Shown one piece after another: positions 107-4,921 of a stretch of 4,921 bases of DNA. The stretch spans positions 1 through 4,921 of the IMG/VR virus record IMGVR_UViG_3300029471_000044. One strand, given 5' to 3'. Under the pieces are notes generated by a model. It was not told where the DNA came from and searched no databases. It saw only the letters and a list, made by a program, of their open reading frames with translations. Source of the stretch: a virus (taxonomy: Duplodnaviria; Heunggongvirae; Uroviricota; Caudoviricetes). The first letter of the stretch is position 1, and every line of letters begins with the position of its first letter. The translations under genes and the position numbers were made by a program.

Positions 107-655
107 TTATTTAGCTAACTTTTTCCAGATCGCTGAAACGTATTTGGCTTGGTGAATGGCATCATCAAGCGCGTTGTGGCGAGTTCCTTTGAATGGCATA
201 TCTCGCTTAGGGTCGAATCCTATTACCTTCCCAAGTTCGACGATTGTTCTTACGTCGCGGTCATTCCACCACTGCCACGGAACTGGCTGCCCTGTCAGCG
301 AATAACTGTTTCGGAGAATAACGCAGTCAAATGATGCTCCATTCCCCCAAACCTGAACGAATTTGTGGTTAGCGTTCTTTATGATGAATTCAGATAACCA
401 TGAAAGAGCCGTTGAAAGCTCCTGAGTGTTGCTGGTTAGCGATTTTCTGGCTTCTTCACTCTGTTCCAGCCACCATAAAATCGTTGAAGCGTCAGGACGC
501 GCTCGATATCGCATTGATGATTCAAGCGAGATATTTACCGAGAACTCTTCTCCTGTTTCTCCGGTATTCGGGTCAAAGAATACCGCCCCAATAGAAATAA
601 CTGGCGCGTATGGCCCGTTGCCCATTGTTTCAAGGTCAACCATTAAGTGATTCAT
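107..655 (-). CDS. DEDDh-type 3'-5' exonuclease (DnaQ/RNase T-like fold), phage exonuclease
   Basis: 182-aa ORF. Motif I MVDLETMG (D-x-E) at the N-terminus, motif II VWGNGASFDCVIL (Asp), motif III HNALDDAIHQAKY (His-x4-Asp) near the C-terminus. ATG 655-653 with SD AAGGA 5 nt upstream; stop TAA 107-109. Confidence 0.85.
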   Translation of the reverse strand: MNHLMVDLETMGNGPYAPVISIGAVFFDPNTGETGEEFSVNISLESSMRYRARPDASTILWWLEQSEEARKSLTSNTQELSTALSWLSEFIIKNANHKFVQVWGNGASFDCVILRNSYSLTGQPVPWQWWNDRDVRTIVELGKVIGFDPKRDMPFKGTRHNALDDAIHQAKYVSAIWKKLAK

Positions 656-663
656 GTAAGTCC

Positions 664-1142
664 TTAAATTGCGTGAATAGCGTGACGAGGGAAGGGGAGA
701 GTTACTGGCTCCTCGTCTGGGTAGATAGGTTTGTTATGTTTGTGCCACTCGACATGACATGACTTGCAGAGCCACATCACATCGGTTGGTTTGCTGTAGT
801 CGCAGTGGTGCGCCTGTGGTTTACATTCTGATCCGCAGCACTCACATTGTGGTGGTCGGATTAGCTTACCGTCGCGCAAAAAATTACCCACGATGATGTG
901 GGCTTTTCTTTTCCATGGGTTGCTCTGAATGAACCGCTTTTTGGCTGCGTTACACCGTTCTCTGCCGCGTTCCGATGATTGATATTCTCTCCTTGCTGAT
1001 ACTCGATGTGGCAATCCCGCGCGCTCTTTGTCATATTCAGCCAGGCAAGCCCGGCAAGCGGCAGTTAATCCATCTCTGGATGCTCTTCTGATTTGAAAGT
1101 CCCTTTCTTCCTNNNNNNNNNNNNNNNNNNNCAGATTTTCAT
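664..1142 (-). CDS. HNH endonuclease, interrupted by a 19-N run (1113-1131); start and frame across the gap uncertain
   Basis: ORF-track product 664-1014 carries an HNH-like core (CECCGSECKPQAHHCDYSKPTDVMWLCKSCHVEWHKH: His-His, then LC-x2-CH, flanked by Cys pairs). The same frame stays open with no stop from 1014 up to the N-run (...EERDFQIRRASRDGLTAACRACLAEYDKERAG-). A strong start context, AGGAGC-N5-ATG (ATG 1142-1140), sits just beyond the N-run but is out of frame if the gap is taken as exactly 19 nt. Stop TAA 664-666. Confidence 0.65.
1113..1131. other. Run of 19 N (unknown or masked sequence) inside the HNH gene
   Basis: Directly visible in the sequence. Confidence 1.
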
Positions 1143-1151
1143 ATTCAGCTC

Positions 1152-1625
1152 CTAGAACGGAATATCCGAATCGTCGAAGTTCATAGGTGGTTCGCTGTGA
1201 TTTCCATGCTGCTGAGGTTGCTGTCTTTGTTGATGACCATTATTTCGCTGAGGTGAAGACTGTTCATTGCCTCCTTGCTTGCCACCAAGCATTTGCATGG
1301 TTCCACCAACGCCCACGATGACTTCGGTAGTGAACCTATCCTGTCCGCTTTGATCCTGCCATTTTCTTGTCCGCAATTTTCCTTCAAGATAAACCTCAGA
1401 GCCTTTTCGCAGATATTCGCTGGCAATTTCTGCCAGTTTCCCGCTCATTACCACGCGGTGCCACTCCGTCTGCTCCTTTTGCTCTCCAGTTTGCTTATCA
1501 CGCCATTGTTCTGACGTAGCAACTGTAAGGTTTGCAAATGCCGTTCCTGATGGTGAATATCTGATTTCTGGATCATGCCCAAGGCGACCAATAATGATCA
1601 CCTTATTTACGCCTCTGCTTGCCAT
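1152..1625 (-). CDS. ssb: Single-stranded DNA-binding protein (phage-encoded SSB)
   Basis: 157-aa ORF. N-terminus [23 protein letters not shown] and motifs [58 protein letters not shown] closely match E. coli SSB as I recall it; Gly/Gln-rich linker and acidic tail ending DSDIPF. ATG 1625-1623, stop TAG 1152-1154. Confidence 0.95.
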
Positions 1626-2333
1626 TTATGCCGCCTGTTTTAGCTCGTTAACTCTGATGTTCATTACCTGAACGCATTTAGCCTGCGCCTCCTCGTTTCC
1701 AGCCATTAATTGCCAGTCATGCTGATAACGCTCGATGAGTTTTTTCTTGTCAGTTTCTGTCGCTGCATAATCGCTGAAGTCTTTCAGGATTTGTTCGCAG
1801 TCAACCGATGGAGATTTCTGGTTGGTATTTTCTGGTGATGGTTTGTTATCTGATGCTGGGATTGCCCATCCCGGCAGCGATGGAGGGAGCCAGTAAAATC
1901 CTGTCCCATCCTTCAGTTTTGCCCTGTGCCACCCCTGCTTTTTATCGAGAGATGTTTGTGCGAAACCTTCCTCAAGGTTATACAGATACCGACCGATTCC
2001 CCATTGAACGGCAGCGCGCTTCATTGCGCCGGAACGACCACCTTTGACTGCTTCTACCTGCGTGTTTTCAGCAGCATCCCATTTGGTTACCCATTCGGAA
2101 TCAATCTTTATTGATATGCCGCATTCAACGCCGCCGTTGTTGGGAATATCGCGGTATTCATTGCGCCATCCTGCTTTGCCGCAAACATCGTCCAGGCGTT
2201 TCATGATTGCCCGGTTCGTGACATAAGCCAGCACCATAGCCCACACTTTGCCATCGCGTGTTTTACCGCTTTGCTGTATTCGCCATTCGATATCTTCAGG
2301 GCTGAATGGCTCATCGAATTTGTTCAAATCCAT
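1626..2333 (-). CDS. Single-strand annealing protein (recombinase) of the Rad52 superfamily (Sak/Erf-like)
   Basis: 235-aa ORF. Contains the signature blocks I associate with Rad52-like phage SSAPs: ...AYVTNRAIMKRLDDVCGKAGWRNEY... and ...GAMKRAAVQWGIGRYLYNL.... ATG 2333-2331 with SD GAGGTG 4 nt upstream; stop TAA overlaps the SSB start region. Confidence 0.8.
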   Translation of the reverse strand: MDLNKFDEPFSPEDIEWRIQQSGKTRDGKVWAMVLAYVTNRAIMKRLDDVCGKAGWRNEYRDIPNNGGVECGISIKIDSEWVTKWDAAENTQVEAVKGGRSGAMKRAAVQWGIGRYLYNLEEGFAQTSLDKKQGWHRAKLKDGTGFYWLPPSLPGWAIPASDNKPSPENTNQKSPSVDCEQILKDFSDYAATETDKKKLIERYQHDWQLMAGNEEAQAKCVQVMNIRVNELKQAA

Positions 2334-2341
2334 AATTCACC

Positions 2342-2597
2342 TCAGAATGGACATGGCCCAAGGAAATAACGCTGATTTAATACTTCAGTCTTTGCCGCAT
2401 TCAAAAATACGCGAACACCTTCACGATCTCCCTTCTGGCGATANNNNNNNNNNNNNNNNNNNTGCGTGTACATGCGCCTCTGTAACTTGCTCTCCTTCAC
2501 TGTGGTTGCAAGTGACATGAATATCTCCTTCGTTACCGATTAATTCTTTCATCTGACGAATGAATTCTTCGTCTGAACAGTTATCTGTAAAACTCAT
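2342..2597 (-). CDS. Small hypothetical protein in the kil-like position, interrupted by a 19-N run (2444-2462); true C-terminus uncertain
   Basis: ATG 2597-2595 (alternative GTG 2612) opens MSFTDNCSDEEFIRQMKELIGNEGDIHVTCNHSEGEQVTEAHVHA up to the N-run. Taking the gap literally the frame stops at 2421. A second frame past the gap is open for 33 codons (YRQKGDREGVRVFLNAAKTEVLNQRYFLGPCPF) to TGA 2342-2344, which overlaps the SD of the SSAP gene; this is in frame if the gap is 20 nt. The SD for ATG 2597 is poorly spaced. Confidence 0.4.
2444..2462. other. Run of 19 N (unknown or masked sequence) inside a small CDS
   Basis: Directly visible in the sequence. Confidence 1.
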
Positions 2598-2685
2598 TTC
2601 CTGCGATACCACGGAATGTTGATCGCTGATTTCATCGCTTTATTTGCTTCAAGCCACATTTTGGAATCACCAATAAATCTGGCTA

Positions 2686-2865
2686 TTACTGCTTTGTTTT
2701 GTGCTGCACGAAGCATCTGGTGATTGATGGATATTTCATTGCGCATAACGCCTCCAGTTGTTTCTTTGCTGCTCTGATTAATTGTTTAACTCGGCGTGAT
2801 AATTCAGATTCGTGCGGGTAGAAAGCGGACATGACGCCGCTACCCGCGAGCTGAAAGTGCATCAT
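2686..2865 (-). CDS. Small protein resembling lambda CIII (FtsH-inhibitor/CII-stabilising peptide family), 59 aa
   Basis: ATG ATG at 2865-2860 preceded by a strong SD AAGGAG (complement of 2872-2877) with 6-nt spacing; the ORF-track TTG start at 2916 has no SD. Product MMHFQLAGSGVMSAFYPHESELSRRVKQLIRAAKKQLEAL... parallels lambda CIII as I recall it (AG-x-PV..P-SESLLERITRKLRDGWKRLIDIL): AG, P-x-ES-L, then a basic amphipathic helix. Sits directly upstream of the kil-position ORF and the recombination genes. Confidence 0.6.
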   Translation of the reverse strand: MMHFQLAGSGVMSAFYPHESELSRRVKQLIRAAKKQLEALCAMKYPSITRCFVQHKTKQ

Positions 2866-2948
2866 GGGTAACTCCTTATATTTGATTGCATAACGAAAAT
2901 GCCTCTCGTGAAGCATTATTGGTATGCGGTAAAGCCGCGCTCAGGCGG

Positions 2949-3197
2949 CTACTCTATTTCTTCTTCGAATGATTTTATTAGTCGGTCAATAACATCATCC
3001 GTTTCAATATCATTTCCGTCTGATTGCTTTAATACATCTATTGATTCTGCAGCGGTAAATTCCATCGCTGTGAGAAACTCGACAATTGCACACTCAACGA
3101 CATATCGTTCTTCATCTGTACGACATGAGATAAAAGAGCATTTAATTGCTGTTATTACTTTTTGTTTAAGCTCTGCAGGGTAATCAGTTTTTATCAT
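2949..3197 (-). CDS. Hypothetical strongly acidic small protein (82 aa)
   Basis: ATG 3197-3195 with SD GGAG 6 nt upstream; stop TAG 2949-2951. 20 Asp+Glu against 9 Lys+Arg, with an acidic C-terminus ETDDVIDRLIKSFEEEIE. First gene after the terminator at 3211-3239. Confidence 0.7.
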   Translation of the reverse strand: MIKTDYPAELKQKVITAIKCSFISCRTDEERYVVECAIVEFLTAMEFTAAESIDVLKQSDGNDIETDDVIDRLIKSFEEEIE

Positions 3198-3210
3198 CGT
3201 TTACTCCGTC

Positions 3211-3239
3211 AAAAAAAACTGCCCTCACATTGGAGGGCA
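3211..3239 (-). terminator. Rho-independent terminator on the minus strand
   Basis: Minus-strand RNA: UGCCCUC-CAAUGU-GAGGGCA (7-bp stem 3220-3226/3233-3239, 6-nt loop) followed by G and eight U (complement of the A8 run 3211-3218). Lies between the 156-aa gene and the acidic 82-aa gene. Confidence 0.75.
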
Positions 3240-3300
3240 AAGAAGATTTCCAATAATCAGAACAAGTCGGCTCCTGTTTAGTTACGAGCGACATTGCTCC

Positions 3301-3328
3301 GTGTATTCACTCGTTGGAATGAATACAC
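3301..3328. repeat. Perfect 9-bp inverted repeat GTGTATTCA-N10-TGAATACAC
   Basis: 3301-3309 is the exact reverse complement of 3320-3328; located 15 nt downstream (in transcript sense) of the stop of the 156-aa gene and about 60 nt upstream of the terminator hairpin. Confidence 0.6.
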
Positions 3329-3342
3329 AGTGCTTATTTGTA

Positions 3343-3813
3343 CTAATAAAATACCCAATTTTCTGTTTCTTGGTTGTGTCCAAAGTTATATTCAATATCT
3401 GGTGTTGATGTATCAATATTCTTCATCCCATCAACAAGAGTTGATACAACAGCCAAATCTTGTTTGATTCTCATCAAATGGTATTTCTTCCGGCGCAATA
3501 AACTTTCAATGGCAAGTTTCTTCGTCGGGAACGCAAAAGATCTTTCTGCATTTTTTGCTACTTTCTTAATTGCATATCTATTTCTCCTTTGTTTCCATTC
3601 CTGTAACCACTGATTTGGTGCTGGTTTAAAATTAACAATCCAATGCGCAGGAACCAACCATGCATAATGCTCTGTCTGATGAAAAGCTATATATTGAAGT
3701 GCGAATATTTTTATCCCATCTTCTTCAACTGTCGCCTGGAATCTCCAGAAAACAGGCATTCCCTCATGTTCAGTTTCTGATTCAGGAAAAGGTACGCTCC
3801 ATGATTTTGTCAT
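3343..3813 (-). CDS. Hypothetical protein (156 aa), function unknown
   Basis: Long minus-strand ORF; ATG 3813-3811 lies 3 nt after the stop (TAA 3817-3819) of the upstream gene, suggesting translational coupling. Stop TAA 3343-3345. No motif I can recognise. Confidence 0.75.
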   Translation of the reverse strand: MTKSWSVPFPESETEHEGMPVFWRFQATVEEDGIKIFALQYIAFHQTEHYAWLVPAHWIVNFKPAPNQWLQEWKQRRNRYAIKKVAKNAERSFAFPTKKLAIESLLRRKKYHLMRIKQDLAVVSTLVDGMKNIDTSTPDIEYNFGHNQETENWVFY

Positions 3814-3816
3814 ATA

Positions 3817-4098
3817 TTACTCATCTCCAAGGGCTTTGCTGATTGCTGACTGTGCTTTCGATACTTCATCAGGATAATGGTCATTCCAGTTTTGCTTGTA
3901 TGCCTTGTTTAGCATCGCTTGCAGTGCTTCAAGCAAATCAGGAGCTGCTGCTATCAGTAGCGCATCCTCCCTTTCATTTCTTGTTGCTGCTTCAATGTAT
4001 GTGTCACCAATCGTCACACCATGGAACGTAGTCATCATCTCGTTGACGTTTCTAACCGTGTACTTCCATTTACCAGGCGTACCCTTAAACTCTTTCAT
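3817..4098 (-). CDS. Hypothetical protein (93 aa) with conserved-looking LLIAAAPDLLEAL segment
   Basis: ATG 4098-4096 preceded by AGAGGTGG 3-5 nt upstream; the ORF track begins 2 codons earlier at GTG 4104. Stop TAA 3817-3819. Confidence 0.7.
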   Translation of the reverse strand: MKEFKGTPGKWKYTVRNVNEMMTTFHGVTIGDTYIEAATRNEREDALLIAAAPDLLEALQAMLNKAYKQNWNDHYPDEVSKAQSAISKALGDE

Positions 4099-4137
4099 AT
4101 CCACCTCTGTTGTTTATGCCAAAAATAAAGGCCACCA

Positions 4138-4338
4138 TCAGGCAGCCTTGTTGTTCTGTTTACCAAGTTCTCTGGCAATCATTGCCGTCGTTCGTATTGC
4201 CCATTTATCGACATATTTCCCATCTTCCATTACAGGAAACATTTCTTCAGGCTTAACCATGCATTCCGATTGCAGCTTGCATCCATTGCATCGCTTGAAT
4301 TGTCCACACCATTGATTTTTATCAATAGTCGTAGTCAT
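4138..4338 (-). CDS. Hypothetical small Cys-rich protein (66 aa), possible zinc-ribbon-like C-x5-C-x2-C-x5-C
   Basis: ATG 4338-4336; weak SD (AGGA, 8-nt spacing); Cys at residues 11, 17, 20, 26; stop TGA 4138-4140. Confidence 0.6.
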   Translation of the reverse strand: MTTTIDKNQWCGQFKRCNGCKLQSECMVKPEEMFPVMEDGKYVDKWAIRTTAMIARELGKQNNKAA

Positions 4339-4408
4339 ACGGATAGTCCTGGTATTGTTCCATCACATCCTGAGGATGCTCTTCGAACTCTTCAAATTCT
4401 TCTTCCAT
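4322..4408 (-). CDS. Candidate micro-ORF, 28 aa, extremely acidic (MEEEFEEFEEHPQDVMEQYQDYPYDYDY)
   Basis: ATG 4408-4406 preceded by SD GAGGTG with 4-nt spacing (complement of 4413-4418); stop TGA 4322-4324, overlapping the start of the 66-aa gene by 17 nt in another frame. Below the ORF-track size cutoff, so coding status is unproven. Confidence 0.3.
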   Translation of the reverse strand: MEEEFEEFEEHPQDVMEQYQDYPYDYDY

Positions 4409-4462
4409 ATATCACCTCAAATAAGTTGTTTGCTGCGAAAGTAAATACGCTTAAGTTACCTG

Positions 4463-4600
4463 TTATTTATTCCACCAAGTTCCGTATCTATCTATCCAGT
4501 TACACCAATCATCGACACTCCATTTTGTTGTGTCGCATTTTGGCAACTGGCATGAATATCTACCTTCTTTGTAAAGTCGGCGTTTGACTTTCTTGAGCAT
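4463..4600 (-). CDS. Candidate small protein (45 aa), Cys-containing
   Basis: ATG 4600-4598 preceded by SD GAGGTG with 4-nt spacing (complement of 4605-4610); product MLKKVKRRLYKEGRYSCQLPKCDTTKWSVDDWCNWIDRYGTWWNK; stop TAA 4463-4465. First ORF downstream of the terminator at 4717-4741. Confidence 0.4.
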   Translation of the reverse strand: MLKKVKRRLYKEGRYSCQLPKCDTTKWSVDDWCNWIDRYGTWWNK

Positions 4601-4716
4601 GGCTCACCTCAATCGTAATAAGCTGGAATTGATTTTCCGCGTTGCTTCTGGCGGCCTGAGCAGGTCACACCCATTTCACTGCGTGGCTTGCTGTAATAAA
4701 TTCGGTTAGTTCAGAC

Positions 4717-4741
4717 AATAAAAAACCCACCGAAGCGGGCT
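4717..4741 (-). terminator. Rho-independent terminator on the minus strand, overlapping the stop codon of the upstream partial ORF
   Basis: Minus-strand RNA: AG-CCCGC-UUCG-GUGGG-UU then UUUUAUU; 5-bp core stem (4726-4730/4735-4739, one G-U pair) with a UUCG tetraloop, extendable to 7 bp, followed by a U-tract (complement of AATAAAAAA 4717-4725). Confidence 0.6.
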
Positions 4742-4919
4742 ATGACCATTTTTTATTTGGATTTCGTTGGTGAGCGTGATTAACAACTCTGTGCATTACA
4801 TCCTCATATTTTTCATCTTCAATTTTTTCGACATCGCGAGGAAATGGTGTTGCTAATGCTTTGTCAACTTTATCCATTGGGTCTTCATTAATCTTATATT
4901 CAGGACCGTCATCTATAGC
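4740..4919 (-). CDS. Hypothetical acidic protein, C-terminal 59 codons only (5' end beyond the right edge)
   Basis: Frame open from the window edge to TAG 4740-4742 (...AIDDGPEYKINEDPMDKVDKALATPFPRDVEKIEDEKYEDVMHRVVNHAHQRNPNKKWS); same strand as the rest of the operon, with a terminator straight after its stop. Not in the ORF track because no start codon is inside the window. Confidence 0.45.
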   Translation of the reverse strand, partial: AIDDGPEYKINEDPMDKVDKALATPFPRDVEKIEDEKYEDVMHRVVNHAHQRNPNKKWS

Positions 4920-4921
4920 AT

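Follow-up and report, generated by a model that had tools for sequence, protein, structure and literature searches.

Two short runs of N interrupt coding sequence in a phage operon, and one of the interrupted genes, read as written, looks frameshifted. Is this gene really broken, and what do the Ns stand for? The window (the whole stretch of DNA analysed here, written with 4,921 nt) contains two such runs, gap 1 at 1113-1131 and gap 2 at 2444-2462. Each consists of 19 N, and there is no other ambiguous base. Both runs are inside minus-strand coding sequence, so that a preliminary description of this DNA was right to say that two N-runs of length 19 each interrupt a CDS. In the reading that we regard as very probably correct, two ordinary coding stretches have been replaced by placeholders of a fixed length of 19 N, which hide 20 and 13 nt, and the genes are intact.

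The operon around the N-runs

The window belongs to a lambdoid, P22-like (Sf6/N7-like) temperate phage of E. coli and covers part of its early-left (PL-type) operon. The long ORFs are all on the minus strand. The gene order is ral ... cIII, kil, two small overlapping ORFs, annealing protein, SSB, endonuclease and 3'-5' exonuclease; also upstream in the operon are an anti-restriction-like protein and two ORFs without assigned function, followed by ral. The DNA is 95-97% identical to that of phages N7, IME10 and Sf6, and the window matches places in 2,327 of the 5,426 complete E. coli genomes. A search of the window against Rfam gave no RNA families.

The kil gene (2594-2746, minus strand) encodes 50 aa and matches Lambda_Kil with E = 1.7e-20. 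Two genes lie between the N-runs, both on the minus strand: one for a Rad52/Rad22-family single-strand annealing protein of 235 aa (1626-2333; PF04098, E = 5e-26) and one for a phage SSB of 157 aa (1152-1625; Pfam SSB, E = 1.1e-38). The exact annealing protein is present in 1481 blocks of the assembly collection. The downstream neighbour of the endonuclease gene codes for an Rv2179c-like 3'-5' exonuclease of 182 aa (107-655, minus strand; Pfam PF16473, E = 2.9e-73).

Gap 1 interrupts the gene of an Sf6 gp26-like endonuclease (664-1142, minus strand), which has 159 aa once 20 nt are restored and is assigned by its match to phrog_2340 (E = 2.6e-47) and by the annotation of Sf6 gp26. Gap 2 is crossed by two small genes on the minus strand. 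The first, at 2342-2518, encodes 56 aa and belongs to the Sf6 gp29 / HK97 gp42 family (phrog_1723); we refer to it as the 56-aa gene. The other, at 2421-2597, also encodes 56 aa and belongs to the Sf6 gp30 / HK97 gp42.1 family (phrog_2123, E = 4e-40); we refer to it as the kil-coupled ORF.

Bases hidden under the N-runs

As a handle for finding twins of the window we used its Kil, a rare variant with an L-to-I change, and an exact protein look-up with it returned three contigs only. Look-ups with the annealing protein and with a 156-aa ORF gave more than 1,000 blocks each and no twin. Two contigs from different ENA assemblies, both encoding the rare Kil variant and both without Ns, are exact twins of the window: scaffold_740 of ERZ28597731 (34,415 bp) and k119_13574 of ERZ27272356 (5,114 bp, a MEGAHIT-style contig). 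They match the window segments 1-1112, 1132-2443 and 2463-4921 exactly, in order and with zero mismatches, that is over 1112 + 1312 + 2459 = 4,883 determined nt.

Between the matching segments both twins carry TCTGTTGATGGCATCTTGAG (20 nt) at gap 1 and CATTAACGCCTGC (13 nt) at gap 2. These are the real bases, on the plus strand, for which the two N-runs stand, and gene callers find on the twins both the 159-aa endonuclease and the 56-aa small ORF. As the twins carry 20 and 13 nt, the true length of the stretch is 4,916 nt and not 4,921.

The relatives agree with the twins. Four annotated relatives with perfectly matching flanks have the same 20 nt at gap 1 and 13 nt at gap 2. When related loci from viral, genome, metagenome and isolate collections were gathered by gapped-pattern scans and protein-anchored look-ups, gap 1 was 20 nt long in 42 of 42 and gap 2 was 13 nt long in 48 of 48. 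Two main alleles of gap 2, CATTAACGCCTGC and CCAGAGAGCTTTC, occur among these 48 loci, plus one single-base variant. Further, among the full-length E. coli chromosome matches listed, all 40 span 335 nt across gap 2, 6 nt fewer than the 341 nt of the query.

The scan patterns were N-tolerant, and an N in a pattern also matches a literal N. In the gapped-pattern scans of viral, genome and metagenome collections neither Ns nor 19 positions were found at these sites. Exact protein look-ups with the truncated or X-containing products that would be expected from the N-containing sequence gave no match. Outside the Ns the window shows zero indels and differs by substitutions only, at 97-99.5% identity, from 9 relatives over the segment of 1112 nt and from at least 7 relatives over that of 1312 nt. 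All length discrepancies are therefore under the Ns.

The hidden bases themselves are ordinary. On the minus strand the endonuclease takes its codons 4-10 from TCTGTTGATGGCATCTTGAG, which give the CSRCHQQ of MKICSRCHQQKEE with the first CxxC. CATTAACGCCTGC codes for QQALM, residues 19-23 or so of the 56-aa protein, and, read in the frame of the overlapping kil-coupled ORF, for AGVN. Both pieces are very short and unique and are not repeats: no 9-mer or longer part of either recurs elsewhere in the window, and their composition is unremarkable (45% and 54% GC). The suggestion that the two hidden segments might be related, for example by a repeated motif, did not hold, as they share no substring longer than 3 nt.

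The commonest way of masking DNA is base-for-base replacement. If the Ns were masks of this kind, the source would truly have 19 nt at each site, the endonuclease gene would be a pseudogene and the 56-aa gene would have two additional codons. A length of exactly 19 at gap 2 does keep the 56-aa gene in frame, as 19 and 13 are equal modulo 3. However, the window would then have just two indels against the twins in 4.9 kb, and both would sit exactly under the 38 masked positions. Further, such lengths are seen in 0 of the 42 and 0 of the 48 relatives, no metagenome contig was found with exactly 19 positions between the gap 1 flanks, and the 56-aa protein is never 58 aa long in 69 phage records. 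We consider base-for-base masks highly improbable.

Reading frames of the interrupted genes

The reading frames were examined by setting each gap to every length between 10 and 24 and translating from the start codons concerned. At gap 1, the frame of the ORF at 664-1014 is open up to the gap. On the other side lies ATG 1142, which has an AGGAG Shine-Dalgarno sequence 6 nt upstream that overlaps the stop codon of the SSB gene. This ATG joins the endonuclease frame only at gap lengths of 11, 14, 17, 20 or 23 (2 modulo 3), and at 20 the product has 159 aa. Its N-terminus reads MKI-CSRCHQQ-KEERDF..., the middle part being hidden by the gap. The gene looks frameshifted and is nevertheless intact, because 19 and 20 differ by one base.

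The preliminary description had proposed just this for gap 1, a downstream frame open to the gap and a Shine-Dalgarno sequence with ATG 1142 that are in frame at 20 or 17, and translation bears it out; the exact twins and the 42 related loci settle the true length as 20, with an intact gene. The frame discrepancy concerns undetermined bases only; the identical contigs carry the 20 nt in frame and have the 159-aa gene. A genuine frameshift or pseudogene was also considered for the endonuclease gene and rejected, since there is no length change other than by multiples of three among the determined bases.

What kind of endonuclease the gene encodes is a separate matter. The protein has an N-terminal zinc ribbon with four Cys (CSRC...CRAC) and a C-terminal HNH-like motif (CECCG...HH...LCKSCHVEWH), and the PHROG 2340 that it matches is annotated 'endonuclease'. 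The HNH motif follows the pattern CxxC ... HH ... (N/D) ... LCxxCHxxxH, and the C-terminal CECCGSECKPQAHHCDYSKPTDVMWLCKSCHVEWH fits it by eye; the AlphaFold single-sequence model is poor (pLDDT 50). Against Pfam nothing was found below E = 0.1 (maximum E-value 10), NCBIfam gave no match, a PDB sequence search gave nothing significant, and BLASTP against the bona fide HNH_3 endonuclease found in some relatives gave no similarity. The HNH label that the preliminary description uses for this gene is plausible but unproven.

At gap 2, the ORF from ATG 2518 runs in frame through the gap to TGA 2342-2344 at a length of 19, and also at 13, 16 and 22. As 19 and 13 differ by a multiple of three, the frame does not change here; the 19 N in the window give the 56-aa gene 58 codons, two more than the real gene. 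The restored protein is MSLATTVKESKLQRRMYTQQALMYRQKGDREGVRVFLNAAKTEVLNQRYFLGPCPF. Its start codon is preceded by an AAGGAG Shine-Dalgarno sequence at a distance of 6 nt, and its stop codon TGA 2342-2344 lies in the GAGGTGA Shine-Dalgarno sequence of the annealing-protein gene. The 33-codon open frame (YRQKGD...GPCPF) that had been described as ending at this TGA and at this Shine-Dalgarno sequence does so, and it is the C-terminus of the 56-aa gene.

The 56-aa protein is well conserved. In 69 of 69 phage records tblastn gives it as one piece in frame, with an identity of 99% or more in 37 of them, and the records at 100% include HK022, H-19B, HK75 and N7. The identity is 82% to Sf6 gp29, 58% to HK97 gp42 and 48% to an Erwinia phage. 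When its relative Sf6 gp29 was used as the query of the profile search, it matched phrog_1723 over its full length (residues 1-56, E = 9.4e-36). The position of the gene between kil and the annealing-protein gene is also kept in relatives.

Substitutions point the same way. Downstream of the overlap, 34 distinct sequences show 12 synonymous and 4 non-synonymous changes in the frame of the 56-aa gene, against 0 synonymous in the other frame. A comparison of the two alleles gives 8 codon differences that are synonymous in the 56-aa frame, and none that is so in either of the other frames. Within the overlap the counts of synonymous and non-synonymous changes are 5 and 2 in the 56-aa frame, against 2 and 5 in that of the kil-coupled ORF.

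The ATG of the kil-coupled ORF at 2597 overlaps the kil stop codon (ATGA), and through this overlap its translation is probably coupled to that of kil. In the twins the ORF has 56 aa and ends at TGA 2421-2423, where it also ends at a gap length of 19. With the 56-aa gene it shares about 90 nt, read in a different frame. Premature stops are present in 3 of 38 distinct sequences; the 56-aa gene is intact in these three, as it is in nearly all sequences compared. By its substitutions and stops, the kil-coupled ORF is less constrained than the 56-aa gene.

The overlap of the two frames, about 90 nt in all relatives, would also allow a programmed +1 ribosomal frameshift, by which the N-terminus that starts at ATG 2597 would be joined to the ...GPCPF C-terminus as one gene. 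A +1 shift in the overlap would indeed join the frames, and the arrangement is kept beside annealing-protein genes of both the Rad52 type and the ERF type. However, the 56-aa gene has a start codon and a Shine-Dalgarno sequence of its own, at optimal spacing, and all of its 56 aa, the part in the overlap included, are conserved down to the 48% of the Erwinia phage. Further, the overlap substitutions favour the 56-aa frame over the upstream one, it is the upstream ORF that has the premature stops, and PHROGs keeps the two as separate full-length families. The weaker constraint on the kil-coupled ORF, together with its premature stops next to an intact 56-aa gene, makes such a fusion unlikely, and overall we give it very little chance. 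A programmed frameshift is needed to explain nothing here.

Origin of the N-runs

The lengths of 20 and 13 nt in twins and relatives differ from 19, and the N-runs are thus placeholders of fixed, inexact length. In a stretch of the early-left operon, two short coding pieces would have been replaced by N-runs with a nominal length of 19. At gap 1, 19 would have been written for 20, and the endonuclease gene would only seem frameshifted. At gap 2, 19 would have been written for 13, with the effect that the 56-aa gene would seem two codons longer and the kil-coupled ORF would still end at TGA 2421-2423. The content and length of the hidden stretches, and the integrity of all genes, follow directly from the identical contigs.

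We infer that the Ns are an artefact of data handling: an assembler may have written them as placeholders for scaffold gaps, or they may be masks from data preparation. We know of no standard gap size of 19, conventional values being for instance 10, 50 or 100. One edge of each gap is at sequence that varies among relatives: hidden positions 2-4 of the 20-mer form a SNP cluster, and 2462/2463 is an allele boundary. Contigs from de Bruijn graphs tend to break at variable sites in mixed populations. The variable sequence at the gap edges may therefore be taken as a weak hint that the Ns arose in assembly.

Some specific sources of a masked 19-mer or 20-mer were considered and rejected. The positions 1113-2462 span exactly 1350 nt and bracket the SSB and annealing-protein genes, as masked PCR primer sites might, but no more than 13 nt are hidden at gap 2. 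With the Tn5/Nextera mosaic end, which has 19 bp, adaptor masks also came into question; they were set aside, since the flanks are colinear and a base-for-base mask leaves the length unchanged. The 20-mer on the minus strand is followed by AGG, as in a Cas9 protospacer, but gap 2 has no equivalent and we take this as chance.

It is extremely improbable that the source phage truly differs from its twins at both hidden sites, be it through one 19-nt sequence, foreign or engineered, that replaced both, or through local hypervariation that defeats base calling. If it did, the Ns would conceal a paired feature bracketing the module of SSB and annealing protein.

The preliminary description had gone further than gap 1 and proposed that both gaps are 20 (or 17) nt long, one and the same adjustment of +1 (or -2) restoring the endonuclease and fusing the ORF from ATG 2597 to the 33-codon frame. 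This is right for gap 1. At gap 2, however, the ORF from ATG 2597 reaches TGA 2342-2344 only at lengths of 12, 15, 18, 21 or 24 (0 modulo 3), so that the fusion would take 18 or 21, and one correction for both genes is an arithmetic error. At 20 or 17 this ORF meets a stop at 2401-2403 (...IARREIVKVFAYF*). The frame at gap 2 is moreover in no need of repair, the true 13 nt giving the same frame as 19. The exact twins and all relatives have 13 nt at gap 2, and a fusion would break the conserved gene from ATG 2518, so that this model can practically be dismissed. What stands of the description is its view of the Ns as placeholders or masks of inexact length instead of two independent frameshifts, which the N-free twins with their 20 and 13 nt strongly support; the argument from a common +1 falls.

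The placeholder explanation carries a practical lesson. In draft or masked sequence the length of an N-run should not be taken as exact, and an apparent frameshift that rests on such a length is no evidence of a pseudogene or of recoding. In the present case identical public contigs allow the hidden bases to be recovered with near certainty, and the genes that the Ns interrupt are both intact and common phage genes. The prophage module is very common, and the artefact in it is an ordinary one that touches no open biological question.

Comparison with known systems

The two gaps resemble the N-runs of nominal length known from draft sequence: the colinear flanks continue exactly, the written length (19) is unequal to the hidden ones (20 and 13), and two runs of identical length suggest that the value is fixed or nominal. 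They differ from such runs in that the missing pieces are very short and unique instead of repeats, and in the unconventional value of 19.

The genes have their closest counterparts in the early-left recombination module of Lederbergvirus, namely genes 26-31 of Shigella phage Sf6 and ORF30-33 of Escherichia phage N7, with the same gene order at 95-97% DNA identity. With Sf6 the window shares the order of gp26 endonuclease, gp27 SSB, gp28 Rad52/Erf-like annealing protein, the overlapping gp29/gp30 and gp31 kil. N7 has the same gap 2 allele as the window, while in Sf6 the 13-nt segment and the ~75 nt after it are of the other allele. Unlike Sf6 and N7, the window has an extra gene for the Rv2179c-like exonuclease between the endonuclease gene and abc2, an arrangement that many E. 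coli prophages also have.

Finally, HK97 has the same pair of small ORFs upstream of its annealing-protein gene, gp42 and gp42.1 (phrog_1723 and phrog_2123), and both families match over their full length. The label 'recombinase' that this pair has in RefSeq and PHROGs is an annotation only.

Two overlapping small ORFs between kil and the annealing-protein gene

The interval between kil and the annealing-protein gene is occupied by two small ORFs on the minus strand, read in different frames and overlapping by about 90 nt (window 2421-2518), with equivalents in all loci. The pair is kept beside annealing-protein genes of the Rad52 type and also of the ERF type. The 56-aa ORF is under purifying selection, and the kil-coupled ORF is truncated in some sequences. 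The 'recombinase' labels that are attached to these small ORFs are annotation only.

An endonuclease gene missing from RefSeq/PGAP annotation

In two E. coli chromosomal loci (L003 and L004) an intact 159-aa Sf6 gp26-like endonuclease gene is left without RefSeq/PGAP annotation: in these records a gap of roughly 500 bp separates the exonuclease gene from ssb, and the unannotated region, positions 1156-1652 in both loci, is equivalent to window 664-1142. The gene is called by other gene callers, and also in the annotation of Sf6. No model in Pfam or NCBIfam covers the 159-aa protein.

Variation among the relatives

The cIII ORF of the window (2686-2863, minus strand; start MHFQLAG) is a stop-loss form of 58 aa, compared with 43 aa in 19 of the 23 sequences (fetched loci and window), and its C-terminal extension overlaps kil over 61 nt. 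The same extended cIII is carried by the two exact twins of the window, the N-free contigs L067 and L068. It is likewise extended in one related locus, L054, but there the residues of the extension differ.

In some relatives (L004, L018 and L034) ssb is separated from the Rad52-like gene by a 464-nt insertion (L004 2123-2590) whose free-standing product, an HNH_3 endonuclease that also carries an HTH domain, resembles a homing endonuclease. In one relative, L051, the cIII-kil region is replaced by an IS605 OrfB/TnpB (Cas12f-like TNB) gene at 2645-3736, directly upstream of the annealing-protein gene.

One related contig, L037 (JAFADF010000066.1, 3,856 bp), comes from a MAG labelled 'Actinomycetes bacterium'; it is 98.8% identical to the E. 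coli phage module across 1,060 nt, and the label probably reflects binning contamination.

Terminator-like hairpins

Three intrinsic-terminator-like sites, each a strong hairpin followed by a T-run, lie within the minus-strand operon (minus strand, window 4149-4128, 3240-3219 and 4741-4724). From what is generally known of lambda, we take these hairpins to be consistent with tL-type terminators that are read through by N-type antitermination.
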